A stretch of 64,000 bases of DNA. Source: an uncultured Lentisphaerales bacterium (GTDB taxonomy: Bacteria > Verrucomicrobiota > Lentisphaeria > JABSQK01 > UBA12247). The stretch spans positions 128,001 through 192,000 of the forward strand of contig CALSSJ010000005.1 of the NCBI GenBank assembly GCA_943788985.1, written 5' to 3'. Each line of letters opens with the position of its first letter. Positions within the stretch are counted from its first letter, which is position 1. A program made the position numbers and the translations under genes. The notes under the pieces are model-generated. The model had not been told where the DNA came from. It did not search any database and was given only the letters and a program-made list of their open reading frames with translations. This document shows, piece after piece, positions 480-62,729 of this stretch.

Positions 480-1322
480 CTAACCCAGGGCTGCGTACAA
501 CGCCGCCCGCATGGCAGCGACCGGGGCTTCCCGCTGTGTCCAGAGCTCGAAGCTGCGCACGCCCTGGTATAACAGCATTTCCTTGCCATCGGCTGTCTCC
601 CAGCCGCGCTCGCGGGCAGCGAGTAGAAGTGGGGTAGGGCGATAAATCATGTCGAGCAATCGGCCATTCTCTGGCAAGACCTCGAGCGGGATCGCGCTGG
701 GATCCTCTGGCTTTAAGCCCATGCTGGAACTCTGGACCACGACGCCTGCAGCAGACAACGCAGTGCGTACAGCATGATTATCCGCGCGGTCGATGACCTG
801 GATGCTCGCCTCGGTTTGCGAACTCCGCAAGACCTCGGCCAAGGCCTCGGCCCTGGCTTGCGTGCGGTTAATTAGGGTGATTTGGGCAGCGCCCGCGGCA
901 GCATAGTGACATGCTGTGGCCCGGGCGGCACCGCCAGTGCCCCAGAACAGAATGTGCGCGCCAGCAGCCGGGACCCCGAATGCCTCGCGAATAGAGCGCT
1001 CCAAGCCGTAGCCATCTGTCGACCAGCCGTACAGTTTGCCGTTGTCGTTCAGGACGGTGTTCACGCTCTGGGCGAGCCGGGCGGGAGGATCGATCTCGTC
1101 GAGGAGCGGGAGCATCGCAGCTTTATGTGGGACGGTGATGTTCCAGCCGCGAAAGTCGTCTGCGACAAGTTGTCGGATGCCGTTCTCGAATTCGCCGGGA
1201 TCCAGGGGGAGAAGCTTATACGAGGCGTCAATGCCAAGCGAATCGAAGCCAGCTCCCTGCATTTGTGGGGACACAGAGTGAGTGACGGGCCAGCCGAGTA
1301 CGCCAAATTTTTGCTGGCTCAT
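480..1322 (-). CDS. aroE: Shikimate dehydrogenase
   Basis: GWPVTHSVSP, GWNITVPHK, SVNT, STDGYG, GTGGAAR and DGKEMLLYQG motifs. Confidence 0.95.
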   Translation of the reverse strand: MSQQKFGVLGWPVTHSVSPQMQGAGFDSLGIDASYKLLPLDPGEFENGIRQLVADDFRGWNITVPHKAAMLPLLDEIDPPARLAQSVNTVLNDNGKLYGWSTDGYGLERSIREAFGVPAAGAHILFWGTGGAARATACHYAAAGAAQITLINRTQARAEALAEVLRSSQTEASIQVIDRADNHAVRTALSAAGVVVQSSSMGLKPEDPSAIPLEVLPENGRLLDMIYRPTPLLLAARERGWETADGKEMLLYQGVRSFELWTQREAPVAAMRAALYAALG

Positions 1323-2359
1323 TCCGGGGCCTGTCTAAATACCAGGCGCATTCCGTCCATATTGCCCTCGCGGTAGGAGCGGTCGAGCCGGACCTGCAGA
1401 TACTTCATGGTCTGGTTTTCCAGCAGTTCCTCTTCACTGAGAATGAGCGCGGTCAGAGCACCGCCGAATACCGCGCCGGTATCAACATTGACGGAGATGA
1501 CATCGGAAAGTGACCGCTCGAAGCAGGTGCGCTCGGGCCAGTCAGTATGATGGTGCCCATGCGGCTGCGGGCTGATGAATTTCACAAACGGGCGGGCAAG
1601 GCTGGCGTTGTAGTTGCCAATGTCTTCCCAGAATTGGCCCAAGTAGAGGGTGGGTGTGTGGCCGTGCACCAGGATGAAATCACCGAAGCGTGTATCGGGT
1701 TCGACCCGATTCCAGAGGTGGAGCGCGTCCGGACTGACGCGGCTGTTGCGGTGACAGGCGTGATAGGCGTCAAACGTAGTCAGGCCAAGCTGCCGCTCAA
1801 TGGAAATATCCGGTGGATCATAGCTGCGCGCCCGTGCCTTCTGGTACAAGCCTGCGTGGGTAAAGGCAAAGTTTACTGCCTGCTCACCCTCACCAATCGA
1901 GTCTTGGTGGGCGTAGCTCATGCGTTGGAAAAAGTCTAGATACTGGTCCTCGAGGACGAAGTCCTCTGCCTTAAAGGGCCGTTGGCGAATGCGATCAAGA
2001 AACAGCTTTTGGGCGACCTGCGGGTGGCGGTCGAAGGAGACTATGCTGGTCTGGCCACCGTTGCCGTTGAACCAGACGTTTCCGTACTGTTCGAGGATGT
2101 CGGTCTGATTGACGAAATGCAGCAGCATATCGTCGTGGTTTCCGGCGATGAACACTGTGGGCCATTCTTCTTCGGCCGCGAGCAGGATATCAATGACTTC
2201 GCGGCTGGATGGGCCGTAGTCGATATAATCGCCGAGAAAGACCAGCTTGCTCTGTTCACCCCGGTCGAAGTCGAACGACCGGATATGTTGAAAGAGTAGG
2301 CGCAACGGATCTGACATCCCGTGAATGTCACCGATAACCCAGACGCATTTATTACCCAT
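1319..2359 (-). CDS. Calcineurin-like/PPP-family metallophosphoesterase (Ser/Thr phosphatase-like)
   Basis: GDIHG, GDYIDYG, GNHD, HGHTP and VDTGAVFGG motifs. Stop overlaps the aroE start (ATGA). Start chosen at MGNK. Confidence 0.85.
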   Translation of the reverse strand: MGNKCVWVIGDIHGMSDPLRLLFQHIRSFDFDRGEQSKLVFLGDYIDYGPSSREVIDILLAAEEEWPTVFIAGNHDDMLLHFVNQTDILEQYGNVWFNGNGGQTSIVSFDRHPQVAQKLFLDRIRQRPFKAEDFVLEDQYLDFFQRMSYAHQDSIGEGEQAVNFAFTHAGLYQKARARSYDPPDISIERQLGLTTFDAYHACHRNSRVSPDALHLWNRVEPDTRFGDFILVHGHTPTLYLGQFWEDIGNYNASLARPFVKFISPQPHGHHHTDWPERTCFERSLSDVISVNVDTGAVFGGALTALILSEEELLENQTMKYLQVRLDRSYREGNMDGMRLVFRQAPE

Positions 2360-2538
2360 CGCATTCGTCCCGCGGGCTGAGATTGCACCGGTAAACTGCG
2401 AACAATGCCGTGTCGCGCCCATTTGGCGATCGACCGTTGCCGTGGATTTAGTCTCTGAATCTGATTAAGGTGGTGATTTTCAGACTTCAGGGGCGTCATG
2501 AAGCCACTTTTTAATTACTGCCGGGACGTGCGATCGTC

Positions 2539-3902: not shown

Positions 3903-3903
3903 C

Positions 3904-4782: not shown

Positions 4783-5603
4783 GCAGGGACCAATTCCTTG
4801 CTAGCTTGGGCGAGAGCCTCAGCGATCTCCTCCGCGGGTTTTGCGGAGTTCGCAACCAGCCGGCCGATGAATCCACCCGCTGGCAGGTCGAAGCTTGCGG
4901 CCAATACCTCCGGCATCTCGGCCACGCGCCCGCTGGGCGGGGTGCCCCCTACCCGCTTGATCTCGGTGGCAAGGGTCTCCTGCAGTGAGTCGGGCCAACC
5001 GATCGCATAGATCGTCTGCAGCACCGGAAATCGGAACGCGCGGGGTGTGTCGGCCGGCAGTGCCTGCGGATCCCAGACCACCTGCGTCGCTCCCCGCTGA
5101 ATCTCCACGTGGCTCTCAAACCGATCGAATGCGAACGCCTCGCCACTGCCAAGGCGACCTGCGTGCACGGTCTCGATCAACAACAGGCGGCCCTCCGGGT
5201 GAACCTGCCAGCTTTGTCGTTGCGCCGCGCGGGTGGCGCTATGCAGGACCAGCGGCGGCATCTGCGAAATCACCGTGGCACCCTCTGCTACGGTCCCGGT
5301 GGTTTGCCAGGACACTGTCGCGTCTTCCTGCGTGCAGCGATAGGCGCGGCCGTGAGACTGGCCGCTCAGGAGCAGGGCGGCCGACTGTTCGCAGCGGACG
5401 TCTAGCGAGACATCGTCGCCCTGCACCAAGCCTCCGCCGTAGGATGAGACCATCACATGGCAGAGGCCGTCGTGTCGTGGATTCAGCAGCCTGAGTGGGT
5501 TCACACTGCGCCAGGAGGTAATGCGGGACTGCCCGCGAGTGAAAGCGACCGTCAGGTGAGACTGCCGGTCATGGGTGGACAATGCGCACTCCGCAATACA
5601 CAA
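4779..5603 (-). CDS. ureD: Urease accessory protein UreD/UreH family (start uncertain)
   Basis: PLRLLNP, SSYGGGLVQGD and GRLGSGEAFAF motifs. Confidence 0.8.
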   Translation of the reverse strand: MCIAECALSTHDRQSHLTVAFTRGQSRITSWRSVNPLRLLNPRHDGLCHVMVSSYGGGLVQGDDVSLDVRCEQSAALLLSGQSHGRAYRCTQEDATVSWQTTGTVAEGATVISQMPPLVLHSATRAAQRQSWQVHPEGRLLLIETVHAGRLGSGEAFAFDRFESHVEIQRGATQVVWDPQALPADTPRAFRFPVLQTIYAIGWPDSLQETLATEIKRVGGTPPSGRVAEMPEVLAASFDLPAGGFIGRLVANSAKPAEEIAEALAQASKELVPA

Positions 5604-6006
5604 TCACCAGCGCCAGCACAAAGCTGACCTGGCCCAGAATCATAGCAAGCTTGCGGTAGAGACCGGGATCTTCGCCAGCACGCACCAGCGCGCCCAACTT
5701 GGGGCCGATGTACCAGTCATGCAGGGCGGACGCGACCAACAGCAAAGTCACCAGCCCCATCTTGGCATGAATCCATGGTGATTTCATGTGCCCCCCTGTC
5801 ACAGCCAAGTACACACCGGTGCCAATGGCGACTAGCAGCGCAGCCCAGCCGATCACGCGAAACCGCCCAGCGGTCTTGCGCAGCAAGTCAGAGCGAGTGG
5901 CCGGGTCTTCACCCTTTAGTCCAGGAATAAGGGCAAAGGCAATAAAAGCAGATCCGCCGACCCAGATGATGGCGGCGAGAACATGGAGAAAGACGATCAA
6001 TTGCAT
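5569..6006 (-). CDS. CopD/DUF4149-like 4-TM membrane protein
   Basis: FLHVLAAIIWVGG start, K..LV..LL...ALHD..IGP motif, four TM helices. Confidence 0.7.
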   Translation of the reverse strand: MQLIVFLHVLAAIIWVGGSAFIAFALIPGLKGEDPATRSDLLRKTAGRFRVIGWAALLVAIGTGVYLAVTGGHMKSPWIHAKMGLVTLLLVASALHDWYIGPKLGALVRAGEDPGLYRKLAMILGQVSFVLALVIVYCGVRIVHP

Positions 6007-7203: not shown

Positions 7204-7788
7204 CTAATCTGCGGGCAGCTCGAACCAGAGTTGCTGGGCGCGGTGGTCGCACAGCTCACTGCACTGCTGTGTAGGGTGTAAGCGCGGGCCTATCAGGCAG
7301 TGATCCAGGGCGATCAGCGGCAGCCGGGCAGGCCAGGTGAAGTTGAGCCCGTCGCCAATGAGCGAGTAGGCGTGCTGATAGCCTTTGGCAACCATTTGGC
7401 CGGAGTGGGCGCTGCGCGGGGTATTGAAGTCGCCCAGCACGAGGTCGAGTGCTTGGCGTGCATGGCGCTGGATATCGCGCAGTTCGCCGCGGACTACCAG
7501 AAGCATCGTGCGCAGCCGCAGGACTCGACGGTTTGCGAAGCCCGCAGCGCCAATGTCCTCGGTCACCTCCGAAAGCAGAAGCAGGTCTGTATCCCAATCT
7601 GTGGTTTGTTTGACAACCGCGGTCTTGCCTTGCTGAAGCCACAAGACGTTCCAGTGCAAGGCCGATAGCCCGTGGGGGGGAGATGGGGCTGCGGCTAGCC
7701 GGGAATTAGAAAGCAGGAAGATTGCCAGCGGTAGCATTGCAGAGATCGCAAATCCTACTGCATAGAGCCAGTGTTTTTCCCGCAGCAA
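7204..7788 (-). CDS. Endonuclease/exonuclease/phosphatase-family protein (short, possibly internally deleted)
   Basis: N-terminal TM, HWNV, LSE, LGDFNTP, TWP..LP..ALDH and DHR motifs. Confidence 0.7.
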   Translation of the reverse strand: MLREKHWLYAVGFAISAMLPLAIFLLSNSRLAAAPSPPHGLSALHWNVLWLQQGKTAVVKQTTDWDTDLLLLSEVTEDIGAAGFANRRVLRLRTMLLVVRGELRDIQRHARQALDLVLGDFNTPRSAHSGQMVAKGYQHAYSLIGDGLNFTWPARLPLIALDHCLIGPRLHPTQQCSELCDHRAQQLWFELPAD

Positions 7789-7923: not shown

Positions 7924-9171
7924 TCAATCTTCGCTCACGTGCGGCAGGCGCTCAATGGGAGTCGGACTGCTGGTGTCGGTACGCTGGACCTCGCTGAATC
8001 GCGAGAAACAGATCCGCGAAATGCACTGGTGAAAGTTCTCGTGCCCGCTCAGGATATCGATCTCGACGCGCATCAGCAAAACGGGCAAGTCACAACGATC
8101 TAGCTTTGGAAAGCGCACGGCGTCTTTCTCGGTGGTGAGCACCAGTTCGGCACCTTTCTCGATGCCGTTGTTGATGCAGTCTATGATCTCCTGCTGCGTG
8201 TAACGGTGATGGTCCGCATGCCGCTCGAGATAGACCAGGGTGGCGCCAAAGCGCTTTAGAAACCGCTCGAAGCTCTCCGGGGCGGCAATGCCGCAGATGG
8301 AGGCGATCTTCTTGCCCTTGAGATAGTTGAGGGCCAGGACTTCCTGCGTGTAGACGTTTCGCAGGTACTGCGGTTTATGGCTGCACTCGATGATTTCGGC
8401 GTGGTGGTTGTGCCGCTTGATGAACTCTTTCAGGTGGCGCAGGTGCGCTCCGCCGTTGGACTTGGTCAGGAAAATGAAGTCCGCGCGCCGGAGGTTCTTG
8501 ATTGGCTCGCGTAGGAGTCCGCGCGGCAGGAGGTGGTGGTTGTCGAACGGGCGCGTGGAATCGACCAGCATGATGTTTAGGCTGGGCTTGAGCGGCAGAT
8601 ACTGAAAGCCGTCATCAAGAATCAGGGTATCCACGCCAAACTCGCTGATCGCGTAGCGGCCGCATTTGACGCGGTCCTTGTCGACGAGCACGATCACGTC
8701 CTTGAGATTGCTCGCAAGCATGTACGGCTCGTCGCCAGCAAGATCTGAGTTGAGCAGCAGCCGACGTCCGTCCGAGACGACACGTGGCGGCACGTCGCTG
8801 GCGCGCCGGAACAGCTTGTCCGTGATCTTCTCGAGAAACGTGCGGTTGCTCTTGCTGCGATAGCCGCGACTCAGAATGGCGACTTTGCGGCCGTTGTGGG
8901 TCAGAGCACGGGAGAATACTTCCACCACTGGCGTTTTGCCGGTGCCGCCCACGGTGAGATTGCCGATGCTGACTACGAGGCAGCCCAGGGTCCGATGCCG
9001 AAAGAGACCCTGCCGGTACAGCGTCAGGCGCAGTTGCACGGCAAAACGGTAGACACGGCTGAGGCAGAAGAGCGCCGCTTTCGCTGCGGTGTCCGCAGGG
9101 GAATGACGGCGTTCTTGCATCAGGTCGGTGACGTAGGTCTCGACCTGTTCGTTAAACGGGCGTTTCGCCAT
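7924..9171 (-). CDS. lpxK: Tetraacyldisaccharide 4'-kinase
   Basis: [39 protein letters not shown] and TTEKDAVR motifs. Confidence 0.95.
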
Positions 9172-10933: not shown

Positions 10934-12193
10934 ATGACCGCGTGCCCGCCGGATCTCGCCCCAGAGAGCCGGTGGGCTGCGCGCAGACTGGATGTGGCCC
11001 TGCTGATCGCCGGTCTGCTGCTGTGTCTGTTTTTCACGGAGCATCGCGTGCATGGCGATGGCGCAATCCGTTTTGACTCGGTACAGGCGATTCTGCGGGG
11101 AACGATACCCGACGGAAAATACTCCTTGATCGGGCCATTGGGCGCGCTGCCATTGGTGGTTCTCGGAACGCTTGCGGAAAACCCGTATGCTGTCGCGGGC
11201 CTGTACAACTTTGCGGTGTTCGCAATTGCCCTGTTCGTGTTATGGTTTGAGCTGGGGCATGTGCTGCCTGACTCAGTGCGTCGCCGCACGCTGCTGTTGC
11301 TGGTCGCCGGATCGATGTTCGCGGCACATCAGCGCGAGTTCTACGGCGAGGTGTTTACCGCGGTTCTGCTTGCCGTCGGCAGCGTCCGGCTGGTGCGCCG
11401 GTGCGATCTCAGCGGCTGGCTGTTGATTGGTCTCGGCATTGCCAACACACCGCCGACCATCGTCGCTGGCGGCCTGCTCGCGCTGGTGCTGTGCCGCCAA
11501 CGAAAGAGCTGGCTGCCTTTGCTGGGCCCCGCGCTGCCGCTGGTGCTGATTCTGGCTGAAGCGTGGATCCGCCGCGGCTCCCCATTCGCGCTTGGCTACT
11601 CCGGCGATGCCGGGATGGTCACGGTGCTGCCATATTCCGGCAAGACAGGGTTCAGCTATCCATTTATTCTCGGCGTGGTTTCGATCCTGTTTTCAGTGGG
11701 AAAGGGGCTGCTTTTTTATGTGCCGGGACTCTTTCTGGGTGCTGCGAACTCCGCAAAACCACAGACGCGAGACCTGTGGCAACTATGGCTTGCCTTTACG
11801 ATCGGGCTGGTGGTGATTTACGCGAAATGGTGGTCCTGGTATGGTGGTTGGTTTTGGGGGCCGCGCTTCTTTCTCTTTGCCTGTTTTCCTGCTTCTCTGG
11901 CGTTGGCCTGTGAGCTGGACCGGCGGAAACTTCTTGCGGCGTTCGCAACCGTACTTTCGGTCTGGGTTTGCTTCTGTGGTGCGGTGTTTGGGCAGATGAA
12001 TGCTGGACCGCTCAGCGAAGTTGACGTGGCCTGGGAGTTCCTTACTTGGTACGTGCCAGAGAACAGCGCCATTCTGCAGCCGTTGGTCGATCCATGGCCG
12101 GTTGGTCTAAATGCCGTGCCATGGGCCCTGTTCAGTTTGGTGGTTGTCGCCCGTCTCCTGATTCCGGTGTTTCGTGAAGATTCTCGCGCTTGA
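10934..12193 (+). CDS. Multi-pass membrane protein, GT-C-like glycosyltransferase candidate
   Basis: Many TM helices and a WWSWYGGWFWGPRF motif. Overlaps the downstream glycosyltransferase. Confidence 0.55.
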   Translation: MTACPPDLAPESRWAARRLDVALLIAGLLLCLFFTEHRVHGDGAIRFDSVQAILRGTIPDGKYSLIGPLGALPLVVLGTLAENPYAVAGLYNFAVFAIALFVLWFELGHVLPDSVRRRTLLLLVAGSMFAAHQREFYGEVFTAVLLAVGSVRLVRRCDLSGWLLIGLGIANTPPTIVAGGLLALVLCRQRKSWLPLLGPALPLVLILAEAWIRRGSPFALGYSGDAGMVTVLPYSGKTGFSYPFILGVVSILFSVGKGLLFYVPGLFLGAANSAKPQTRDLWQLWLAFTIGLVVIYAKWWSWYGGWFWGPRFFLFACFPASLALACELDRRKLLAAFATVLSVWVCFCGAVFGQMNAGPLSEVDVAWEFLTWYVPENSAILQPLVDPWPVGLNAVPWALFSLVVVARLLIPVFREDSRA

Positions 12194-13259
12194 GCCTTTT
12201 TATGGGGGCAGCCACCGCGCATTTTTGCGTCAGTGGCAACAGCACAGCTGTCACGACTTCACGCTGCTGACCCTGCCTGACAGAAACTGGAAGTGGCGAA
12301 TGCGTCACGCGGCCCTCACGTTTGCCGCGCAATTGCGAGAGCGCACCGAGACCTGGGATGTGATTTGGTGTTCCGACATGCTCGATGTGGCCAGCTTCCG
12401 CGGGCTACTTCCCTGCGAACTTCGCAAGTTGCCCGTAGTTCTCTATTTTCACGAGAATCAACTGACCTATCCGGATCGTACGGCGAGACCGCGCGATCAT
12501 CACTTTGCCTACACCAACATTATCAGTGCGATCTCCGCAGATGCCGTCTGGTTCAATAGCGAATATCACCGCAGCAGCTTCTATGAGGCCGCAGAGGCGT
12601 TTCTCCGGCGCATGCCGGATCATGCGCATCTGGAAGAGTTGCGGAGTTCGCAACAACGTTCGGCGGTGCATCCACCGGGGATTGATTCGGTGCCCGCGCG
12701 AGTATCGGTGCGAAACGGGCCGTTACGGATTTTGTGGAACGCGCGCTGGGAGCATGACAAGAATCCTGAGACGTTTTTCGCCGCGCTGCGCCTGTTGCAC
12801 GAGACGGGTACGGCGTTCGAGGTGGATGTGTTGGGGGAACAGTACGCCAAGCAGCCAGCGGTGTTTGCGGAGTTCGCAACAGACCACGTCGAGCATGTGA
12901 ACCGTTGGGGGCATCAGGACAGTCGTGCGGATTACGCCGAGGCGCTGCGGGAGGCCGATGTGGTGGCATCCACCGCTTACCACGAATTCTTTGGGATCGC
13001 GGTACTGGAAGCGGTCGCGGCTGGGGCCTGGCCGCTGGTGCCGGAGCGCCTGGCCTATCCTGAGACGCTGGCGCGCTGGCCAGCGGAGAGTCGAGATCGC
13101 GTATTTCACGATGGGAGCGCTGCGGATCTGTGCGCGAAGCTGGAGGCCTGGAAGCGCCCGGAATGGGTGCCGGACCCCGGGGAAATCCTCAGTCCTTATT
13201 ACTGGCAGGCCACAGCTGGGAAGATGGACCAGGCGCTGGCCCAGAACGAAAATCTGTGA
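12174..13259 (+). CDS. DUF3524-domain GT4-type glycosyltransferase (GTDC1/QTMAN homologue)
   Basis: LEPFYGGSH, WKWRMR, YFHENQLTYP, RWEHDKNP and HEFFGIAVLEA motifs. Confidence 0.85.
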   Translation: MKILALEPFYGGSHRAFLRQWQQHSCHDFTLLTLPDRNWKWRMRHAALTFAAQLRERTETWDVIWCSDMLDVASFRGLLPCELRKLPVVLYFHENQLTYPDRTARPRDHHFAYTNIISAISADAVWFNSEYHRSSFYEAAEAFLRRMPDHAHLEELRSSQQRSAVHPPGIDSVPARVSVRNGPLRILWNARWEHDKNPETFFAALRLLHETGTAFEVDVLGEQYAKQPAVFAEFATDHVEHVNRWGHQDSRADYAEALREADVVASTAYHEFFGIAVLEAVAAGAWPLVPERLAYPETLARWPAESRDRVFHDGSAADLCAKLEAWKRPEWVPDPGEILSPYYWQATAGKMDQALAQNENL

Positions 13260-14461: not shown

Positions 14462-17026
14462 ATGATACGACGCATTCTTTTCCGCAGAGACTGTCTCTGC
14501 ATTTTGATGATTTCCGCCTGCTGGCTCCCAGCGGCGGATCTTTACGTTTCCGCCAGCGGTAGCGCGACTGCGCCTTATGACTCCGTGGCAACAGCGGTCA
14601 CGACCATTCAGGCCGGTATTGACGCCGCGCAGTCCGGCGACACCATTCACATCATCCCCGGGCTTTATCGCGAAACTCTGACAGTCGCGGGCAAGGCACT
14701 TACCCTCGAAGGCGATGGCATTGCGCAGACGCGGCTGGATGCGAACTTCGCAGGATCGGCACTTGCGATTTCCGCAAACGCGTCGGTCACGCTGCGAGGC
14801 CTGACCATCAGTGGTGGCCTGGCAACACTTGGCGGCGGAATCTCGGTCGTAGACGCTGGGCTCACTGCCAGCAACGTGCGCATCACGGCCTGTCGAGCCG
14901 GGCGCGGAGGGGGGCTCTACGCGAACAACGCAATTGTGTCTGTAAACGACTCGGTCATCGATGGCTGTGATGGCTACATCTCAGAGTCGGGGGCTGGAAA
15001 GGGCGGGGCGATCTACGTGCTCTACTCGCCTGCCGGGATCCCAGCAAGTTTTGCGAACTGTGCAATTCATGGCAATCGGGCCGTATATGGCGTCGTGCGC
15101 GCCTGGGCCTCAGAGGCCGTGTTTCGGCAGTGCCAGTTTTTTGAGAACCGCGCAGAGTCGGACATCATTGAATTGCAGTCGGCGAGTCATGTGGACTTTG
15201 TCGACTGCTTAATTCACTCGAACCAGTCCCTTTCTCGGAGCTGTCTGGCTATCTACAACGAGAGTACCAGCGAGCTTGCCTATTGCACTATCACCGAGAA
15301 TGAGTCGCTGGGGGATGAGTCCGTGGTTTACGTAGATGTGTGGTCTTCGTTCTCATGCTATAACAGTGCGCTGCAGCGCAATTCGCCCGACAGGCTGGAG
15401 GTGCCATCCACCGCCGTATTCGCTGGCTCGGCGCTGTCCACGGCACCTGCTGGGTTCAGAATTATATCTATCGCCGAGGCGTTCTCGAGCAGCAGTGAGG
15501 GCGCATACTTCCTTGCGAACACCGCAGCTGCGCCCACTGAGTTTATCGGCCTCGGCGTGAGTGCAGGGCCTTCTTATGTGGTCGCTGAGAACGTCCGGCG
15601 CTGCTTTGCTGCGGAAGAAACTCCGGCAGCGGTGTTAAACGCGGGCTACGGCTATCCATTCGGTATCTTGGGGAGCCTGAAGGTGGCAACTCTGCCGGAA
15701 TGGACGGCGACAGGAACAGGCCAGCCGTCTCGCTGGTATATGCTTGAGGAATCGGCAACGATGGATTTTTCCGCGTTCAGCAGTCGGACGATTGGCCCGC
15801 TTACGGCGGTAAGCAGCGCTGTCGGGATTCCAGAGCCGACGGAGGCCGGACTGTTGCTACAACGGCTGCGCAGCTCCGCGCCGCTGGGGAACAGCGTGGC
15901 GATCCAGCTGGAAGATAATGCGCAGGCAGCAGTGGTGGGCGTTCGCGTGGACCTACTCGCCGCGGATGGAACGGAGTGGTATGGCGCCGGCGTTTCAGAT
16001 GCGCAGGGCCAGGCAATCATGCAGAATGTGCCGGATGGATCGTACACGGTCCTGGCGGGAAGCGTGAGCGCCGACTACGTCTCCACCTTTTTGGGCAATG
16101 CAGGCGCGGTGGGGGCGGCGACTACTTTTGACCTGCGCAGTGGCTCACGTGCGACTGGCACCATCACGCTGGCCGGCGGCAACCGCATCGAGGGCCACGC
16201 GCGCATTGCGGGGACCGCGACTTTTCTGCCAGATGTAGCGGTGGTCATTTACGATAGCTCAGATACGCCAGTGAAGAGCGCGGTGACAGACGCGGTTGGC
16301 AACTACTCGATCGGGGGGTTACCCAACGGTACGTATCGTGCGCTCGGCCAGAACTCACCCGCATACTCAGATTCCTACTACTTTAATCAGGCGGACCTGG
16401 CCAGCGCAAACGGTGTGGCTGTTTCGGGTAGCTCGACAGTGAATAGCGTGAATCTGAATCTTGGAGCCAAGCTGGCGATCACCGGCGAGGTGACACTGCC
16501 TGACCAGGGAAACCTGTTTCAGATTACCGTGGTGTTGTACGATGCGTCGACGTTTGAAGAGCGGTCCTTTACATTCTGTGATTCGCTCGGGCAGTACACG
16601 CTGTATGCGAGCCCCGGCACGTATATTGTCTCTGCCGGAGAGGGATCTTCCTATGTCGTGACCTACAGCGCCTCGCTCACGGTCACGAGTCAGCCGGTTA
16701 CGGGTCAGGATTTCATCCTGTCGCAGGGCGGCACCATCTCTGGACGGATCACAGACTCATCGGCCGTCCCGTTGAGCGGTATCTACGTGGACATCTACGA
16801 AACGGACGGGACAACCTATGTGACTTCGGCGCTGACCGGCGCGAACGGTACCTATACTACGCCGGAGCTTGGCGCAGGCGACTATTTTGTGCTTGCCTAC
16901 GGAGATCCAAGCTATACGAATTTGTGGTATCCGGGGACGTCGAACCCCACGTCAGCCACCACAGTTGGCGTCGTCGCCGGGCAGGATACGCCCAACATCA
17001 ACATCGCTATTTCGCTCGCCCGGTAG
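14462..17026 (+). CDS. Secreted protein: parallel beta-helix (pectin-lyase-like) plus carboxypeptidase-regulatory-like repeats
   Basis: LYVSASGSATAPY..TIQAGIDAAQSGDTI..G.Y.E start, GGG repeats, repeated T...G.Y....L..G.Y.V modules. Confidence 0.75.
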   Translation: MIRRILFRRDCLCILMISACWLPAADLYVSASGSATAPYDSVATAVTTIQAGIDAAQSGDTIHIIPGLYRETLTVAGKALTLEGDGIAQTRLDANFAGSALAISANASVTLRGLTISGGLATLGGGISVVDAGLTASNVRITACRAGRGGGLYANNAIVSVNDSVIDGCDGYISESGAGKGGAIYVLYSPAGIPASFANCAIHGNRAVYGVVRAWASEAVFRQCQFFENRAESDIIELQSASHVDFVDCLIHSNQSLSRSCLAIYNESTSELAYCTITENESLGDESVVYVDVWSSFSCYNSALQRNSPDRLEVPSTAVFAGSALSTAPAGFRIISIAEAFSSSSEGAYFLANTAAAPTEFIGLGVSAGPSYVVAENVRRCFAAEETPAAVLNAGYGYPFGILGSLKVATLPEWTATGTGQPSRWYMLEESATMDFSAFSSRTIGPLTAVSSAVGIPEPTEAGLLLQRLRSSAPLGNSVAIQLEDNAQAAVVGVRVDLLAADGTEWYGAGVSDAQGQAIMQNVPDGSYTVLAGSVSADYVSTFLGNAGAVGAATTFDLRSGSRATGTITLAGGNRIEGHARIAGTATFLPDVAVVIYDSSDTPVKSAVTDAVGNYSIGGLPNGTYRALGQNSPAYSDSYYFNQADLASANGVAVSGSSTVNSVNLNLGAKLAITGEVTLPDQGNLFQITVVLYDASTFEERSFTFCDSLGQYTLYASPGTYIVSAGEGSSYVVTYSASLTVTSQPVTGQDFILSQGGTISGRITDSSAVPLSGIYVDIYETDGTTYVTSALTGANGTYTTPELGAGDYFVLAYGDPSYTNLWYPGTSNPTSATTVGVVAGQDTPNINIAISLAR

Positions 17027-17039: not shown

Positions 17040-18032
17040 ATGTATCGCCTTTCTTCTCTTTCTCAGTTGCCGGATGTCGGGCTATCGCGCTGTGCGATCA
17101 CCTGCGGGGTCTTCGATGGCGTCCATGTGGGACATCAGTCTATTCTGAAGCAGCTGCACGAATGCGCCACGGAAACCGATGCGTTCCCGGTGGCAGTGAC
17201 GTTCGACCCACACCCACGCGCGGTGCTGCGACCGGAGGCAGCACCGCGACTGTTGTTCTCGATCGACCATCGGCTAGATTTTCTAGAGGACGAGGGGGTG
17301 AAGGCGGCGGTGACCCTGCGTTTTGACCGCGAGCTCTGCGCGCTTTCTGCTGCGGAGTTCGCAAATCAAGTGTTGGGCCCGGCCGGGCTGGAGATCGCTG
17401 CGATTTGCGTGGGGGACAGCTGGCGGTTTGGCGCCAAGGCATCGGGGACTGTCGCAGACCTCCGGCGCTTCTTTCCGGCCGCCAAGGTGGTGGGCGTCTC
17501 AGAAACTGAGCTGACGGACGCCGTGGTCAGCAGCACCAGAATTCGCGCAGCGGTGCAGGCCGGTGACCTGCCGCAGGCAGAACAGCTGCTGGGGCGGACT
17601 TTTTCCGTGCGTGGCACGGTCGTGCGGGGGAAGGGGCTCGGGCGGACGCTGTTGGGCTGTGCCACGGCAAATTTGCACCTGACCGATTACGTAAGCCCGC
17701 CAAAGGGGATCTACGCTTGCGAGGCGTCGCTGTTCCCGGAAGATGGGAGGCGAGAACATGCGGAGAGGCACGCCGCAGCGGTGTACATCGGGCATGCGCC
17801 AACAGTATCAGCAGGGCAGCCTTTGACGCTCGAGGCACATCTGTTTGATTTCTCCGAGGACATTTACGACCGTACGATCGAAGTAAAGTTCTTGAAACGA
17901 CTACGGAATGACGAACGTTTTGACAGCCTCGAGACGTTGCGCGCACAAATTCAGCGCGATCTGCTTGAGGCGCGCCAGGTCCTGCATAGAGCAGGTGTAT
18001 GTAGCCGACCACTGACCGCGGAGTTGCCATGA
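17040..18032 (+). CDS. ribF: Bifunctional riboflavin kinase/FAD synthetase
   Basis: GVFDGVHVGH, TFDPHP, VSSTRIR, GRTLLG.ATAN and EAHLFDF motifs. Confidence 0.95.
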   Translation: MYRLSSLSQLPDVGLSRCAITCGVFDGVHVGHQSILKQLHECATETDAFPVAVTFDPHPRAVLRPEAAPRLLFSIDHRLDFLEDEGVKAAVTLRFDRELCALSAAEFANQVLGPAGLEIAAICVGDSWRFGAKASGTVADLRRFFPAAKVVGVSETELTDAVVSSTRIRAAVQAGDLPQAEQLLGRTFSVRGTVVRGKGLGRTLLGCATANLHLTDYVSPPKGIYACEASLFPEDGRREHAERHAAAVYIGHAPTVSAGQPLTLEAHLFDFSEDIYDRTIEVKFLKRLRNDERFDSLETLRAQIQRDLLEARQVLHRAGVCSRPLTAELP

Positions 18033-35254: not shown

Positions 35255-35271
35255 TGCGGTCTTCCTTGCGC

Positions 35272-47222: not shown

Positions 47223-48371
47223 GCAAGCTGTTCCCGCCTCTCCCGCAAAACCCTCGCCACCGCGGCAGCTGTTACGCGTCTGCGTCTACAGCCTGCTGTT
47301 CGTTCTTTGCCTTTTTGGCGGAGGCGTCTTCTACCTGCTGCACAGCCATCCGGCGCCACGCGAGTATGCCGTATGCGGGAGCTCCGAACGCCTCGGTGCA
47401 GATCTGGGCCGCGCCCGGGCGCGATCACTGCGTTTACTGCAGTGGCTCTACGTCAAGCCCGTGGTCTGTCTCGGGGATGAAAACCTGTTCCAGACCCGTA
47501 GCGCTGCTGTCAGCAAAATGCTCGATACCTTGCCCAAGCGATACGCCACGGAGCTGACTGCGTTTGCGAACTCCGCAAACGTGAAGTTGCACGAGTTTTT
47601 CTACGCCAACTGCCTGCTGGACATGGGCAACGCCCGCGGTGGTTGCAGAAGCGCCGTCGTCGCGAGCGATGAAAAGTTGCTGCATGCGCACAATCTAGAT
47701 TGGCAGAACCTCGGGGCTTGGGGAAATGATCGACCGTCATCCTGCGTCGTACTCCCGCCGGGGAGCGCTTCAAAACGGTTTCAGTCGAGTTCCCGGGCAT
47801 GGTGGGCGCGCTGGATCTTATCAATGAGCATGGCATTGCGCTGTCCTTCAACCAATTGGGCTTTGGCCGCGCCGTTCCCACTGAGCCGGTCTTTATCACC
47901 ATGTGCCGCATCGCCGAGCACTGCCGAACCTTCGCCGAGGCCGAAGCAGAGATTCTCACTTGTCCATCAGGAATGCCTTTTCTGCTGACGCTCTCGTCTG
48001 CGAGCGAGCAGCGTGCTGCAGTTTTCGAGCGTCAGCGGAGTGAGATTGTGCGGCGCGATCTTGCCGACGGCTGGGTGGCCGCCTGCAACCTCGCGCAGGG
48101 TGCGGATCGTGGCGAGACCGTACTCGACCAACAAATGGCCAGCGTCACGCCCAAGAACGCGAAGGAGTTGATTGCCGTGCTCGGCGATGCACGAGTCTTG
48201 ATGGATTCGAACATCTACAGCGTGATCTTCGATCACACCGGAAACCGGCTCTTGCTCGCCCCCGCGCTACGCCTGCCGCGCAGACCACCTTTCAGGATTA
48301 GATCCTGTTTCCTCGCCGAGATTGCAGCCTGGGGGAGCTCAGTGATCTGCAGATTTCCCAGGGTAAGATAG
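47206..48371 (+). CDS. C45-family Ntn-hydrolase/acyltransferase (frameshifted near 47720)
   Basis: TM, GCRS, HAHNLDW, FPGMVGALD.INEHG..S.N motifs. End uncertain. Confidence 0.7.
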
Positions 48372-53198: not shown

Positions 53199-56123
53199 AT
53201 GAAATCTACTTTTCAGAACTTTTCTTTCGCGCTCGCGCTCATCACTCACGTGCTTAGCCAGCTGGCATTTGCTGGCAGTTACAACCTGGACGATGTCGTA
53301 TTTCCCGCTGACATGCCCCCGGAAATCGGCGATCTGGCATTTGCTGCCGATGGCACCTTGTACGCAGCCTTGCGCCGTGGCGACATCGTGGTCGCCACCC
53401 CCACCAAAGATCCAACGGCGTTTCAGTGGCGCGTGTTTGCCACCGGCCATCACAACATCCTTGGTCTGGAAGTCGTCAAGCCGGGGCACCTGGTGGTCAG
53501 CCAGATGGCCGAACTGACCGAAGTGATCGATACTGATGGTGATGGCGTCGCCGATCGCTACAACAATCTCTCCACGGCTTGGGGCGTGAGCGGAAACTAT
53601 CATGAGACCAACGCGCTTTGTCCGGATGGGGACGGCGGCTACTACATTGCCGTTGGTACCGCCTCGCATAACGGCCCTACGTTCGACACGCCGCGCGGCG
53701 ACTACTCCACGGCGGGGCGCCGCGGTCGCAATTTTTCAGCCGTGAAATACAAGGGCTGGGTGCTTCACTATGCCAAAGACGGTACGGTGACCCCGCATTG
53801 CAGTGGCTTCCGCATGCACAACGGCATCGCCCGAACTACCGACGGTATGATTTGGTGTGGCGATAACCAAGGCGACTGGCGCGGTGCTTCCCCGCTCTAT
53901 TGGTGTCGCGAGGGCTCCTTCTCCGGGCATCCGGCCAGTCTAGTCTGGGACCCGCGATTCAAAGATTTCGGCACGCCCATCTATTGGCCGCGCAAGCTGC
54001 TCGACGACCTGCACAATGAGCCAGCAATCATGATGGCGCACGGCGAGATGCGCTCCTGTGGTGAACCCATGCAGATCACCACCGACAATTTCGGTCCCTT
54101 CAAAGGCCAAATGCTGATCCCCGATGAGAATAGCCCCCGGATCATGCGGGTCATGCTTGAAACCGTCGATGGGGCCTGGCAAGGGGCCAACGTCCTGTTT
54201 CACACCGGCGGCCTGCGCCCGTCCGGGGAACCGTATGGCGATGTCACCGGACGGAAAAACCCTGTACTATGGCGAAACTGCTCGCGGCTGGCAGAAACCA
54301 AATGAAGGCATTCACCGCCTCCACTACACGGGTACCGTTCCATTCGAAGTTCTGGACTGTAAACTCACCACCGGTGGCTTTGCCGTGAGCTTTACCCAGC
54401 CCATCCAAGAGCCCAGCAAGCTTGCTAGCCAGTTAACCGTCAGAAGCTTTCGCTACGAGTACGGCTATCACTATGGCTCCAAGCAGAAAAGCGTTCGGGA
54501 GCATGCGGTAACCGCCGTATCGGGCAACGGTCCCTACGAATTCACAGTCGCCGACCTGCAACCCGGTCGCGTCTACGAGCTCACCTTCGCCAACGTCCTC
54601 GCTGCCGACGGGTCAACAATTGGCAACCCCAAGGTCACCTACACCATGAATCGCCTGAAACGGCCACCTGCCCAAAACAGAGCCACGATCAAGCAATCAG
54701 ACAACGGTCTCAAAGTGTTTATCAACGGCGAATTCTTCACCGAGTACTTTCTGAGGGGCTTCACCAATCCCATCCTCTGGCCCATTCAAGCACCAGGTGA
54801 CATCCGTATGACGCGCAATTGGCCCATCATTGCGGACACCGCTGGCGAGCAACACGACCACCCGCATCACAAAGGGCTCTTCGTCGGGCACCAGAACCTG
54901 AACGGCGTGGACTTCTGGCACGAGGGCAAGGGCATCAATGGCAGGATGAATCACACCCGCTTGATCGAAACGCGTTCAGGCGAAGACCGCGCGCTGATCA
55001 AGACCCTCAATACTTGGACCACAGACGCGGGAAAGACCGTGGCCGCTGACACCCGCACCCTAACGTTTTGGGGCGACGAAAGCGCTCGCTACATTGACCT
55101 CGAGATCAATATCCACGCCACCCACGAAGATCTGCTCTTCCACGAAATGAAGGACAGCTTCGTGGGATTTCGCAGCCATCCGCACCTGCGCGTAACAGCC
55201 AAGCCAAAGGCCGGCGTCACAGAAGTGTGACGGCCACGTCGTCAACAGCGAGGGGGTTACCGGCAAGGCGGTCTGGGGCAAGCGGGCCGACTGGGTTCAT
55301 TATCATGGCCAAGTCGAAGGAAAAGATGCTGGCTACGCCTTCATGAGCCATCCCGGAAACCCATCCGCTGCTGGTCAGAAATCCTGGTGGCATGCGCGCG
55401 GACTACGGCCTGATCTCCGCGAACCCGTTCGCCCCCGAAAAGTTTCAGGGCGACGGCGACCATACGATCGCCAAAGGCGACAGCCTGCAGCTGCGCTATC
55501 GCTTCGTCTTTCATCGCGGACCTGCGGACTCCGCAAATATCGCCGAAGCATTCGCTGCATACACCACAGAAAGTGCCCACCCGACCGCCGACATGCCTGG
55601 CCATCCCGGATATCCTGGTGCCTACGGCAACCCAAAGCCCAAGGGTGTCCAAGCCCAAAAGAAACAGCGTCGTTCCGCTCCCCAGCTTGGCGGCGGCACC
55701 ATCACCAAGGCTGGTCGTTCTGTAAGCGGCAAGCAGGCAAAGAGGCCTAAGATTCTTGCCAACGGCCTGGTCGAAGGCACCAAAATATTTGGGGACCGCG
55801 CCTACACATTCACGGTCGTCCCCGAATCCGCACGCGGTGCCGACTACTTACAGACCTTCAACAACGACAAGAAGGGCGCCAACGCCCACTACGAGCTGAC
55901 GCTTAGCGCGCCAGCAGAGCTGCTGGTGCTCATGGACACACGCGCCGAGGCTCACGTTCCCTGGCTCAAAGACGGCTTCGAGAAAACCAACGAAATCGTT
56001 CAGACCGACGCCGATTTTCGATTTCGCGTCTACCGCAAGCGCGTGAATCCCGGCGCCGTGACACTTGGCCCACAAAAAGGCTTCAGCTTCTACGGCGTTG
56101 CCGCGATCAAGCAAAAGGACTGA
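53199..56123 (+). CDS. PVC-type sugar-dehydrogenase-like beta-propeller fused to a DUF6807/PmoA-like domain (three apparent +1 frameshifts)
   Basis: DTDGDGVAD, SGFR..NG and DNQGDW motifs, then DHPHHKGL..H and WHARDYGL..ANPF. Frames rejoin at about 54226, 55228 and 55400. Confidence 0.7.
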
Positions 56124-56535
56124 GGCCCGGACATCATCCTCACGAGAAACCAGCGATCTGTACCTGTCCAGGCTTGCGATGGGCAAGCTCGGATTTCATG
56201 TCTGCACTCGCTGTAGCTACTGGGATCTCTTGGCTAAGCTAATCTTACAAAGCAGCCGAGGAATCCGTCCTGCCCGCAGCCGAGGGAGCCGCGCACCAAC
56301 TTGCTTACCGGGTAAATGACTGCGGAGGTGATCCTTACGACATGTTTGGGACAGGCAGCTTCAAGAACAGCAGTTCGCAAACGCCTTTTGCGGCCAGGCT
56401 GGCAATTTACGTGACCTCCCCAGCCAGCTTCTTGGGGCGCTGGGTCTTGCGGACCGCGCAGGCCACGTCTACCGTGCCCCTCGCTGAAATCCAGGTGCCG
56501 CAGTCCCGCGGCTCGCCCCCCCCTCAAGAAGGTGC

Positions 56536-60709: not shown

Positions 60710-60963
60710 CGCGACACCATAACCTCGGCCAGCACCGGTGTGGACTCCGCAATTTGCAAGTTCGCGACTCCGGGTGCGAACGCCATCGTCGGCGTAAGCG
60801 GGTCACCAGGCCGGATTGGTGTGGCCTCAAATTCGTATTTCAGCAGGGCACGAAGTTCGCTCCCGCGAATGGCGAGCGCTGCCCCGTGCGCTAAGCCTGC
60901 AAGAAGCACGCCGAGTACACCGACGGCAAATACCAGCTCAAGGATGGAAAATCTACGCCGCAT
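60706..60963 (-). CDS. Short prepilin-type protein (possibly truncated)
   Basis: MRRRFSILELVFAVGVLG start. ATGA overlap with the next gene. Confidence 0.55.
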   Translation of the reverse strand: MRRRFSILELVFAVGVLGVLLAGLAHGAALAIRGSELRALLKYEFEATPIRPGDPLTPTMAFAPGVANLQIAESTPVLAEVMVSR

Positions 60964-61054: not shown

Positions 61055-61160
61055 GAATATCCAACAGCCAACAAGGAATTGCCACTGCCCAAGGCGTGGA
61101 GGACGTGCTGAATAGTCTCTATTTGGCTATTGGATATTTCTTGTTGGCTGTTGTTTATTC
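61055..61160. repeat. ~105 bp palindromic REPIN/MITE-like element, copy 3
   Basis: GAATATCCAACAGCCAACAAGGAATT...TTGGATATTTCTTGTTGGCTGTTGTTTATTC. Confidence 0.8.
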
Positions 61161-61307
61161 TGCCTTTTCCAAGCTGTGGTCAGCGTGCCCGTCATCCGCA
61201 GGCGGTCAAGGCAGTGCCGTGCGGGATCGCGTGCGCGGCCTTGCGTACGGCCAAAGTGTCGCTAGGTTTGGGATGGTATTTTCCTTACTTTTTAGGCGAG
61301 CCGCACC

Positions 61308-62729
61308 GTGCGATTCCTTTTCTTTTTGCTTGTCGCAGCCACCGCCTGCGCTGATTTCGCCGGCTTGGCGCCGGACGGGCTTATTTACGCGTCTAATCGT
61401 AGTAATAGCTTTCAGATCTGGCAAACTGACCTGAATCAGGATGCGCAGTTGACGCATCTGGAGGGCGATATCGCCTGGGCACCGCGGCTCTCACCGCATG
61501 GTGATGTGCTGGTATACTACCGGAGCGCGAAGGGCGCTGGGCCGAATAATTTCGAAAGCTGTGAACTGTGGCGCCACAGTCTGATCAGCCACCATGACCG
61601 GGCGCTGATTCCCCGTCGTAAGTATGGCTGGAAAGCGCACTCCGGGGCGCAGTGGTCTCCCGATGGCAAGTCGCTGGTAATGGCCGCTAAGACCACGAAG
61701 GAAGATGCCTGGCAGCTTTTCGTGACCGATGGTGAGGGAAATTATCCGCGCAAGTTGACGCGCGGCGAGCGCCAGTTTCACGATCCCTGCTGGTCACCCG
61801 ATGGCAGGCAGATCGCCTATGTTGCGTTTCCCAAAGGATACGAAGGCATCGACCCCCGTCGCTTCGAAATCCACATTGCGAACGCCTCAGGCAAGGACGA
61901 AGTACGAGTTACCTACGATGCGCTGCGTGATCATCATCCGGCCTGGAGCCCAGACGGCACTCTGATTGCCTACGAATCTCAGATCAATAAGACGGTGGGC
62001 ACCAAGGGAAGCTGGGCGATTCGGGTCATTGGCACGGATGGCACCGGAAACCGATCTATCGTTGAAGATGCTCATTTTAACAGCAGCCCGCGCTGGTCAG
62101 TGGACGGGAGCGTGGTGTTTTTTCACCGCTCGCGCAATGTGAACGCGGACGAAGTGCACATCTGGGGGATTGGGCAAGACGGCAGCAGGTTGCGCCGCGT
62201 GATTTACAGCAATGCCTACAGCAACATGATGGTGGACATTGTGACCCCGCAAGCGGGCGAGTCTGAGGAAGAGTACGTCTGGCCCAAGACGACAGTGCCC
62301 GTCGAGAAGCGAGAACTTGCTGAGTTGAGCAAAGTCCTTAGTGAGGAAGACGCCGCTGAGCAGCTCGTTGCGGAGTCCGCAATTCCAGCTGCCGTAGTCC
62401 AAGAGCCGACCGAGTTGCCAGACATCGATGAGCCGGCACTGGCGGCAGTACCTGTGGTACAGGCTATGCCTGAGATGCAAGAACTCATTCCCGAGCCCGA
62501 GCCCGTGCCGGAGCCAATCCGAAAGTTCGAGCGCATCGAGAAGGGCAAGGAGGTGCCAGAGCCAGAACCCGTCCCAGTGCCCAAGCTGCAGGCGACTCCA
62601 ATTGAAACGCCGAGCGCGCCAGCGATCCAAGATGCTGAGCTTGAACAGATGCTCGAGCAGGCACTGGATGGAACTTTGGAAGGCGACTTCCCGGATGAAC
62701 CAGAAGGTTCACATCCGAAAGTAGATTGA
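61308..62729 (+). CDS. TolB-like (PD40) beta-propeller with Glu/Pro-rich tail
   Basis: Signal peptide, repeated P.WSPDG..IAY motifs. Confidence 0.85.
   Translation: MRFLFFLLVAATACADFAGLAPDGLIYASNRSNSFQIWQTDLNQDAQLTHLEGDIAWAPRLSPHGDVLVYYRSAKGAGPNNFESCELWRHSLISHHDRALIPRRKYGWKAHSGAQWSPDGKSLVMAAKTTKEDAWQLFVTDGEGNYPRKLTRGERQFHDPCWSPDGRQIAYVAFPKGYEGIDPRRFEIHIANASGKDEVRVTYDALRDHHPAWSPDGTLIAYESQINKTVGTKGSWAIRVIGTDGTGNRSIVEDAHFNSSPRWSVDGSVVFFHRSRNVNADEVHIWGIGQDGSRLRRVIYSNAYSNMMVDIVTPQAGESEEEYVWPKTTVPVEKRELAELSKVLSEEDAAEQLVAESAIPAAVVQEPTELPDIDEPALAAVPVVQAMPEMQELIPEPEPVPEPIRKFERIEKGKEVPEPEPVPVPKLQATPIETPSAPAIQDAELEQMLEQALDGTLEGDFPDEPEGSHPKVD

Follow-up and report, generated by a model that had tools for sequence, protein, structure and literature searches.

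A bipartite palindromic word, TTGCG-N5-CGCAA, abundant in the genes of a Lentisphaeria bacterium and some of its relatives: a possible self-DNA tag

This study provided evidence that the genome of an uncultured marine Lentisphaerales bacterium carries a sequence-specific word, TTGCG-N5-CGCAA, which acts at the level of DNA and is over-represented about 76- to 1500-fold, depending on the null model. The word was analyzed starting from a stretch of 64,000 nucleotides (the window; C5:128001-192000) of a metagenome-assembled genome (MAG) of 4,582,059 bases in 48 contigs, which is 83.6% complete with 1.49% contamination. This genome is termed G000, and other G, f and g numbers denote relative genomes, families and genera. 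The two arms of the word, of four to five bases each, are strictly kept, while the five-base centre depends on the lineage. Alignments with related sequences indicate that the word was written into resident DNA by point substitution and not by insertion, changing amino acids. A comparison of species within one related genus shows arm conservation far exceeding the background, together with drift of the centre. We regard TTGCG-N5-CGCAA as an apparently undescribed counterpart of the DNA-uptake sequences and of the cyanobacterial highly iterated palindrome HIP1.

In the following, a RASTY site is TGCG followed by the centre R-A-S-T-Y and CGCA, written TGCGRASTYCGCA, and an arms-only site is TGCG-N5-CGCA with another centre. 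All 20 exact RASTY copies that a first-pass annotation had listed in the window were found at their coordinates, compared with a mean of 0.02 and a maximum of 1 in 100 dinucleotide-preserving shuffles. Allowing up to one mismatch gave 34 matches (0.44 expected), including the 12 one-mismatch copies already named and two that had been missed, at 7534 and 9085. The same annotation correctly described a single duplex, TGCGGAGTTCGCA/TGCGAACTCCGCA, as making up 12 of the 20 exact copies, with T before the site in 12 of 20 and A after it in 16 of 20. The enrichment that it had predicted for the rest of the genome is also present, with 850 RASTY copies in the whole assembly (11.9 per 64 kb), and no 10-mers or 12-mers in this genome are more frequent than pieces of the motif. 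The codon-level null that it had proposed was run with 20 shuffles of each type: against 747 coding copies, synonymous-codon shuffling within each gene left a mean of 13.6 (range 7-20) and whole-codon shuffling left 0.5. Oriented on the central base, the sites have the consensus T(68%)-TGCG-G(78%)/A-A-G-T-T(63%)/C-CGCA-A(62%), the preferred full form in G000 being TTGCGGAGTTCGCAA. The two orientations of RASTY copies are nearly equal genome-wide (433:416), and beyond 15 bp there is no sequence information around the sites.

The 13-mer with the RASTY centre had been taken as the unit of the signal; the conserved unit is instead the bipartite TTGCG-N5-CGCAA, of which RASTY is a lineage dialect. 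In G000, the four-base arms TGCG and CGCA are found 1749 times with a spacing of five bases, compared with 143-183 times for each of the spacings N1-4 and N6-9, and the longer TTGCG-N5-CGCAA occurs 594 times, compared with 5-11 (about 8) at N3, N4 and N6-N8. The centre classes within TGCG-N5-CGCA are led by GAGTT (424), GAGTC (239), AAGTT (109), GAGAT (100) and GACTT (78), followed by a long tail. The 15-mer consensus itself is present in 216 copies; single centre substitutions leave 22-97 copies and substitutions of the outermost T/A leave 12-41, while any single arm substitution leaves at most 8. Counting mismatches over all ten arm positions, the excess is graded: 594 sites without mismatch compared with about 8 at other spacings (76-fold), 1081 with one mismatch compared with about 205 (5.3-fold), 3255 with two compared with about 2720 (1.2-fold), and a ratio of 1.0 from three mismatches upward. 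Summed over this series, the excess amounts to roughly 2000 sites.

Among all 5-N5-5 inverted repeats, only those with the arm TTGCG (594 compared with 8.5) and its outer variants CTGCG and GTGCG are enriched in G000, and inverted repeats as a class are not enriched at this spacing (6996 at N5 compared with 5982-6797 at other spacings). Since only one arm sequence is enriched and the class as a whole is not, the signal is sequence-specific and is not that of a generic hairpin. Because the two half-sites are identical and lie roughly one helical turn from each other (about 10 bp between their centres), and because the preferred centre is self-complementary (A6/T8, R5/Y9), we infer that the word is read on duplex DNA by a two-fold symmetric, homodimeric protein.

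The relation of the word to proteins was evaluated with a crude gene caller of our own, which predicted 3502 genes; these cover 83.6% of the genome, probably an underestimate. The coding copies number 747 of 850, with 103 non-coding, corresponding to 0.195 and 0.137 per kb, respectively. All three phases are used, giving Ala-x-x-Ala in 515 coding copies, C-(E/G)-(L/V)-R in 114 and L-R-(S/T)-(S/P)-Q in 118, and the sites are evenly spread along gene length. The proteome of G000 accordingly holds the tetrapeptide AEFA 187 times compared with 21 for the reversed AFEA, CELR 72 times compared with 4 for RLEC, and LRSSQ 40 times compared with 1 for QSSRL. These data agree with the earlier proposal of a genome-wide signal at the DNA level, and they show that it overrides codon and amino-acid preferences. 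One argument offered for that proposal, namely that occurrence in both orientations speaks against an mRNA element, is invalid for a palindrome, because transcripts of either strand hold identical arms.

The sites found in the window are as follows; the strand is that of the gene or open reading frame (ORF), and the residues are those encoded at the site.

168..180, centre GACAT (TTGCGGACATCGCAA), 5'-open ORF 1-405 (+), A-D-I-A phase
817..829, exact RASTY site, aroE (-), LRSSQ
4842..4854, exact, unnamed 274-aa ORF (-), ANSA
5583..5595, arms-only, centre CACTC
7534..7546, arms-only, centre AAGCC
9085..9097, arms-only, ABC-F ATPase gene (+), CGVR
11212..11224, arms-only, unnamed 419-aa ORF (+)
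11743..11755, exact, unnamed 419-aa ORF (+), ANSA
11935..11947, arms-only, unnamed 419-aa ORF (+), AAFA
12414..12426, exact, GT4-like glycosyltransferase gene (+), CELR
12527..12539, GAGAT-centre variant (TGCGATCTCCGCA), GT4-like glycosyltransferase gene (+), A-I-S-A phase
12640..12652, exact, GT4-like glycosyltransferase gene (+), LRSSQ
12866..12878, exact, GT4-like glycosyltransferase gene (+), AEFA
14740..14752, exact, 871-aa beta-helix protein gene (+), ANFA
14764..14776, arms-only (TTGCGATTTCCGCAA), 871-aa beta-helix protein gene (+)
15514..15526, arms-only, 871-aa beta-helix protein gene (+)
17351..17363, exact, ribF (+), AEFA
32769..32781, exact, murC (-), AEFA; other residues in relatives, no indel
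32937..32949, exact, murC (-), AEFA
33177..33189, exact, murC (-), AKSA
33240..33252, exact, murC (-), AESA
33279..33291, GAGAT-centre variant, murC (-), AEIA
33333..33345, exact, murC (-), AEFA
35267..35279, arms-only, at a gene junction, outside called genes
41031..41043, exact, leuS (-), CELR
41555..41567, arms-only, leuS (-), LRIPH
42665..42677, arms-only, lpxA (+)
43112..43124, near-cognate with one arm mismatch (CGCGGAGTTCGCA), lpxA (+)
43378..43390, exact, queG (+), ANSA
43630..43642, exact, queG (+), AESA
43963..43975, arms-only, queG (+)
45180..45192, exact, HD-type 5'-deoxynucleotidase-like gene (+), AESA
47565..47577, exact, 260-aa C45-like ORF (+), ANSA
55523..55535, exact, unnamed 243-aa ORF (+), ADSA
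56448..56460, arms-only, no called gene
60739..60751, near-cognate with one arm mismatch (TGTGGACTCCGCA)
62369..62381, exact, TolB-like beta-propeller gene (+), AESA

As had been stated, all 20 exact copies lie within called ORFs and in several frames (16 Ala-x-x-Ala, 2 CELR, 2 LRSSQ). The gene names aroE, ribF, murC, leuS and queG were supported by NCBIfam, and the name ureD (4779-5603) was not, since this ORF has no family match. The spacing of 113 and 226 bp among the sites at 12414, 12527, 12640 and 12866 is attributed to chance: they use three different frames, and no distance is preferred genome-wide except multiples of 3.

The origin of the sites was evaluated through murC, where the orthologue alignment that had been suggested was performed. 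MurC of G000, with its six sites, was aligned with 29 orthologues of 34-49% identity. None of the six sites coincides with an insertion, the flanking residues align, and no orthologue has a site in the same column of the alignment. The residues at the sites are related to those of relatives but differ from them (for example FAEFA in G000 and FRTFA in relatives), which indicates that the motif arose here by substitution.

Conservation between species was assessed outside the lineage of G000 itself, in the genus g18, by comparing three stretches of G025 with the syntenic DNA of G028 and G034 after removing blastn matches of at least 90% identity (rRNA operon copies). The resulting alignment covers 69,767 bases at 75.9% identity. 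In it, 25 site-by-species comparisons for G025 sites were free of gaps and one further pairing had a gap. All eight arm bases were kept in 12 of the 25, compared with 8395 of 63,912 control 13-base windows (13.1%; binomial p=2.6e-5, a value that overstates the evidence because G028 and G034 are not independent). Per base, the arms were 82.5% identical, the flanks 77.0% and the centre 69.6%, and sites kept in all three species differ in their centres (e.g., GATTC, AATTC and GAAAA). More than half of the g18 sites are species-specific, indicating substantial turnover.

The annotation had further suggested that the repeat is specific to this lineage, and we found it instead to be patchy across the class. 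Copies of TTGCG-N5-CGCAA were counted in relatives, and the reversed word served as control. In 151 genomes of the class, drawn evenly and each no less than 85% complete, strong enrichment was defined as 40 or more copies and no less than 5 times the control count; 22 genomes (about one in seven) in 13 of 26 families are strongly enriched and three more are borderline, and nearly all genomes of families f6 (37 genomes), f7 (40) and f11 (20) are at control level. G000 is the sole member of its family among the genomes compared. The following counts are those of G000 and of the motif-rich members of a set of 41 relatives.

G000, 594 copies, control 9
Family f3, 56-103 copies, control 3-8
G017, 185 copies, control 0
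Genus g15, 216-390 copies, control 0-2
Genus g18, 469-712 copies, control 4-6
G032, 75 copies, control 1

Among these 41 relatives, the sister genus g21 and families f2, f4, f5, f6, f7, f10 and f11 are at or near control. The RASTY pattern understates this spread compared with TTGCG-N5-CGCAA. The centre is a lineage dialect on constant arms: RASTY in G000, GASTC in G032 and free in G025. In 400 kb sampled from G032 (GC 0.68), 53 N5 sites were found compared with 1-16 at other spacings, and 25 of the 53 have the centre GASTC. In 200 kb sampled from G025 (GC 0.40), there were 34 N5 sites compared with 1-6 at other spacings; here the centre is near background composition and the arms gain an extra outer T/A (TTTGCG...CGCAAA). 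A sample of 200 kb from G020 held no sites above control. A search of a genome collection with the 15-mer gave at least 109 stretches, and among the 80 matches listed, 16 loci are in MAGs labelled Lentisphaeria, Lentisphaerae or Victivallales, 5 loci are in two MAGs labelled Verrucomicrobiota and the rest are single matches in unrelated taxa, so that repeated matches among those listed are confined to these two sets of MAGs.

Within G000, sites are present on all 48 contigs, and they become denser as local GC increases: regions of 54-56% GC have 1.2 sites per 10 kb and those of 60-62% have 7.0. No short-range period other than the codon phase was detected across the 48 contigs. The orientation of sites with an asymmetric centre is weakly linked to local GC skew (112:95 and 95:122, odds ratio 1.5, p=0.04) and shows no link to the strand of the gene (p=0.14). 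A promoter with clustered sites, as autoregulation might produce, was sought among the 78 TTGCG-N5-CGCAA sites in non-coding DNA; they are scattered and gave no lead.

One large block of G000 is nearly free of the motif: C12:1-86000 has 1 TGCG-N5-CGCA site compared with about 33 expected. The block has a lower GC (0.544-0.567), and almost all of its genes are on one strand. At least 8 of them encode sulfatases, and others encode alpha-L-fucosidases, sialate esterases, enzymes of the GH20, GH95 and rhamnosidase types and a single DDE transposase; the block may be an island for the use of sulfated glycans that was acquired recently. The 15-mer was also found in 60 viral contigs, of which 59 have a single copy, as chance gives. 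The only enriched one, IMGVR_UViG_3300022555_000207 (bases 1-14602, GC 0.60), carries 6 sites in 14.6 kb, in the genes for the Mu-type portal, the large terminase and their neighbours, with a dialect of the G000 type and a density like that of the host. This contig is Mu-like, encoding a Mu portal with a Mu F domain, a large terminase and a patatin-like gene, and a link of the phage to a Lentisphaeria host is possible.

Taken together, the many intragenic sites, the graded near-cognates and the near-absence from the C12 island suggest that the word accumulates slowly in long-resident DNA, by drive or by weak selection favouring it. By analogy with the uptake sequences of Neisseriaceae and Pasteurellaceae and with recent evidence on HIP1 in cyanobacteria, its most likely role, which we propose tentatively, would be that of a tag marking self DNA, recognized on the duplex by a symmetric dimer during the uptake or recombination of DNA. 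Fragments that contain the word would have an advantage in binding, import or recombination, and variants that create it would therefore spread through the population. A narrower version, which we put forward with some doubt, is that the Lentisphaeria possess a new type of self-recognition word, whose symmetric receptor in an uptake or recombination pathway has drifted in specificity into dialects.

Several observations weigh against a self-DNA tag. The conservation of arms above background does not separate function from drive, and population data have no power: 21 SNPs in 21 kb include none in 15 sites (0.2 expected), and of about 40 variant places listed for window 1-20000 from contigs of 4 runs, with 15 further places outside the list, one is in a site, with no polarity. 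This only in-site variant among those listed, T>G, affects the first base of the site at 12414, which is T here but G in one contig from run X17 and, near the end of a contig, in run X19. The Lentisphaeria word is palindromic and bipartite, unlike the known DNA-uptake sequences (DUS) of Neisseriaceae and uptake signal sequences (USS) of Pasteurellaceae, which are asymmetric words. Its sites are clustered (coefficient of variation of gaps 1.38 compared with 1.075 for random placement; 335 gaps below 300 bp compared with 201 expected), which differs from the more even spacing of USS. The genes for competence do not vary together with the motif: all 41 of 41 relatives have PilT, 39 of 41 have ComEC, and PilM is present in 146 of the 151 genomes of the class. 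No ComEC was detected in G000, whose assembly is 83.6% complete, and among the relatives compared no receptor was found and no candidate co-varied with the motif. Moreover, a nucleoid or repair protein would be just as good a fit to a palindrome that is recognized by a dimer.

Concerning the factor that reads or writes the word, the co-occurrence check outlined in the first-pass annotation, covering methyltransferase and competence genes across relatives, gave no candidate that tracked the motif. PilT, PilM and DprA are present in G000; PilT, ComEC and PilM were set aside as the factor, being near-universal and not tracked by the motif. A 565-aa protein (G000:C31:127427-129121; L153:1405-3102) combines a C-terminal ComEA-type HHH_3 domain with a 480-residue N-terminal region without family; it is conserved across the order, following its phylogeny and not the motif, and was rejected. 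A second ComEC paralogue of 944-1054 aa (L290:234-5050 in G011; L291:1910-6811 in G017) has the DUF4131 and Competence domains, and about 350 C-terminal residues without Pfam match replace the lactamase domain; directly upstream lies an unannotated gene of 662-682 aa. It was likewise rejected, as it occurs only in the motif-rich G005, G011, G013 and G017 and neither in the other motif-rich genomes searched nor in G000.

The DNA methyltransferases of G000 were inspected as well. The sole PF02384 (HsdM) locus, G000:C36:36244-38483, consists of two tandem stretches in several frames with one internal TGA, and represents either a decayed restriction-modification locus or assembly errors. The only intact enzyme found is a 383-aa C5 methylase (G000:C17:79194-81275; L142:1194-3275), followed by an ORF for a 225-aa HNH endonuclease, with which it probably forms a restriction-modification pair. 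It had no match at E<=1e-15 in 5 genomes of f3, 1 of f8 and 8 of f9, most of them motif-rich, and matches of at most 37% identity in 10 other relatives, one of which is motif-rich (G032). Lacking an orthologue in motif-rich relatives, it was discarded as the factor.

Of the candidate functions offered in the first-pass annotation (a nucleoid-protein site, an uptake sequence, or a repeat driven by methylation or repair), the last was weakened by the methylase and Vsr searches. The word could serve instead as the site of an abundant homodimer that organizes the nucleoid or structures the chromosome, each site being kept by weak selection. This agrees with the pair of palindromic half-sites one helical turn apart, with arm conservation between species above background and with sites on all 48 contigs, and both selection and a role in chromosome structure are argued for HIP1 in the available text of Xu et al. 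2018 (PMC5861425). Nevertheless, we consider it unlikely, as weak selection would be hard to sustain on thousands of sites that cost amino acids (about 600 to 1750, or roughly 2000 in excess with near-cognates), the sites form clusters that track local GC and the residency of the DNA and not position, more than half turn over between congeners, and the searches yielded no candidate protein. Alternatively, the word could be a Chi-like or defence-related self-marker that modulates a DNA-degrading or recombination enzyme, so that own DNA is protected or favoured following its entry or damage, independently of uptake. This would account for a self-DNA signature that is absent from the acquired island and present in a temperate-type phage, and the accessible portion of a preprint proposes a Chi-like component for HIP1 (bioRxiv 10.1101/2024.09.10.611283). 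Such a marker is, in our judgement, quite improbable: there is no strong strand skew here (112:95 and 95:122, odds ratio 1.5), and no such system was identified, though PADLOC was not run. In the model of Elhai, a methyltransferase marks the word and biased mismatch repair converts near-cognates; a ratchet of this kind fits the graded excess of neighbours with one and two mismatches, and the presence of the word in the Mu-like phage contig is what a process acting on any resident DNA would give. Alternate HIPs are linked to cognate methylases in the part of Elhai 2015 (PMC4390886) that was available. For the Lentisphaeria word this model seems more improbable still, since G000 gave no match to PF01555, PF02086 or Vsr (PF03852) (83.6% complete; other methylase families were not searched), the HsdM locus is broken, the intact C5 methylase has no orthologue in motif-rich relatives, and eight to ten specified bases around a free centre would be unusual for a Type II methylase site.

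Two further explanations have far less in their favour. A hairpin in RNA or single-stranded DNA, with a 5-bp stem UUGCG/CGCAA and a 5-base loop, would be the same on the transcript of either strand, as the palindrome yields the same stem in both orientations, and the strict arms and free centre of G025 resemble stem and loop. Even so, we give this explanation very little weight: no other 5-N5-5 inverted repeat is enriched, compensatory arm variants are absent, the self-complementary centre of G000 and G032 would leave a 1-base loop, and the sites are present in non-coding DNA as well (0.137 per kb, compared with 0.195 in coding DNA) and are spread evenly along genes. High copy number and palindromic form might also recall footprints or copies of inserted miniature mobile elements, such as repetitive extragenic palindromes (REP), miniature inverted-repeat transposable elements (MITE) and Rickettsia palindromic elements (RPE). 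This reading is already contradicted by the alignments, with no conservation past 15 bp, none of the six murC sites at an insertion and gap-free comparisons between congeners, and it hardly merits further consideration.

Compared with known systems, the word has both shared and distinct features. The sites of MatP (matS), SlmA (SBS), Noc (NBS) and ParB (parS) are likewise palindromes of 13-16 bp with two half-sites, implying a symmetric dimer; they number tens, often in one chromosome region, and do not reshape the proteome, whereas the Lentisphaeria word has 594-1749 sites on all contigs. Chi and the FtsK-orienting polar sequences (KOPS) are short asymmetric words with strong strand skew, unlike this one with its 433:416 orientations and weak link to GC skew. 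REP, MITE and RPE differ in that the word has no extended conserved sequence and no murC insertions. The features shared with DUS and USS are hundreds to thousands of mostly intragenic copies in preferred frames and both orientations, lineage dialects, a graded near-cognate excess and scarcity in acquired DNA. The differences are that, besides its clustering and the lack of co-variation with machinery, the Lentisphaeria word is not enriched in intergenic DNA or terminator pairs.

HIP1, the function of which has been debated for thirty years, is the other close counterpart. Both HIP1 (GCGATCGC) with the alternate cyanobacterial HIPs and the Lentisphaeria word are GC-rich palindromes, hyper-abundant in genes and found in all frames in coding and non-coding DNA; both distort codon and peptide usage and are lineage-wide yet patchy, with variant words. 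The Lentisphaeria word is unlike HIP1 in being a 15-bp, bipartite 5-N5-5 word with a variable centre instead of a contiguous 8-mer, in belonging to a different phylum and in having no cognate methyltransferase among the families searched in an incomplete genome. Conservation of sites between related genomes above control is common to both, as far as the available text on HIP1 goes (PMC5861425). For HIP1, a period of 10-90 kb along the chromosome is also reported by Xu et al. 2018. Available excerpts of other reports state that HIP1 increases transformation efficiency (bioRxiv 10.1101/2024.09.10.611283) and that its abundance correlates with pilus and competence genes (PMC13756078). The accessible part of Elhai 2015 (PMC4390886) mentions neither Lentisphaer* nor Verrucomicrob*. 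In accordance with the earlier view that the motif is undescribed, no description of it was found in the literature covered, which leaves out most subscription journals. Pieces of the motif turned up, among the papers listed, only in eukaryotic primers or constructs, and none of the papers listed on Lentisphaeria or Victivallales connects these groups with uptake sequences, iterated palindromes or transformation.

DUS, USS and HIP1 are among the few cases in which a process at the DNA level visibly rewrites proteins. The word adds a structurally different example from another phylum, with strict arms and a centre that is free or a dialect, which gives the clear prediction of a dimeric reader of duplex DNA. 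Useful contrasts for finding this reader are the motif-rich genera g15 and g18 compared with g21, and the rich families f1 and f3 compared with f2, f4 and f5. Because one genus combines complete genomes with 469-712 copies of the word, the function of HIP1-like words, and whether molecular drive spreads them, could be tested directly in organisms other than cyanobacteria and the classical competent pathogens. Motif density also marks long-resident compared with recently acquired DNA, an example being the 86-kb sulfatase island with its near lack of the motif, and the motif could aid binning, phage-host assignment and the design of DNA for genetics in bacteria of the Planctomycetes-Verrucomicrobia-Chlamydiae (PVC) group.

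Regarding the distribution of the organism, a metagenome scan for intermediate relatives gave one contig of 99.90% identity and otherwise proteins of at most 46% identity. Window 10000-18000 is nearly unchanged (0.80-0.99 of sampled 31-mers) in 20 metagenome runs of marine, estuary and plankton samples, which belong to 9 studies, and the organism is therefore widespread with low diversity.

Other repeats were noticed in two of the relatives. In G009, the reversed word AACGC-N5-GCGTT occurs 94 times, compared with 0-25 in the other genomes searched, mostly as the single 15-mer AACGCCTTCAGCGTT, several copies of which are at contig ends; it may be part of a longer dispersed repeat and not a word of the same kind. 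In the 200 kb sampled from G025 (contig C1), the 14-mers CTAATCTCGGTCGT and AACCATGAGCTGCA occur 18 and 17 times, respectively, with both strands counted, which suggests a separate dispersed repeat family in that genome.

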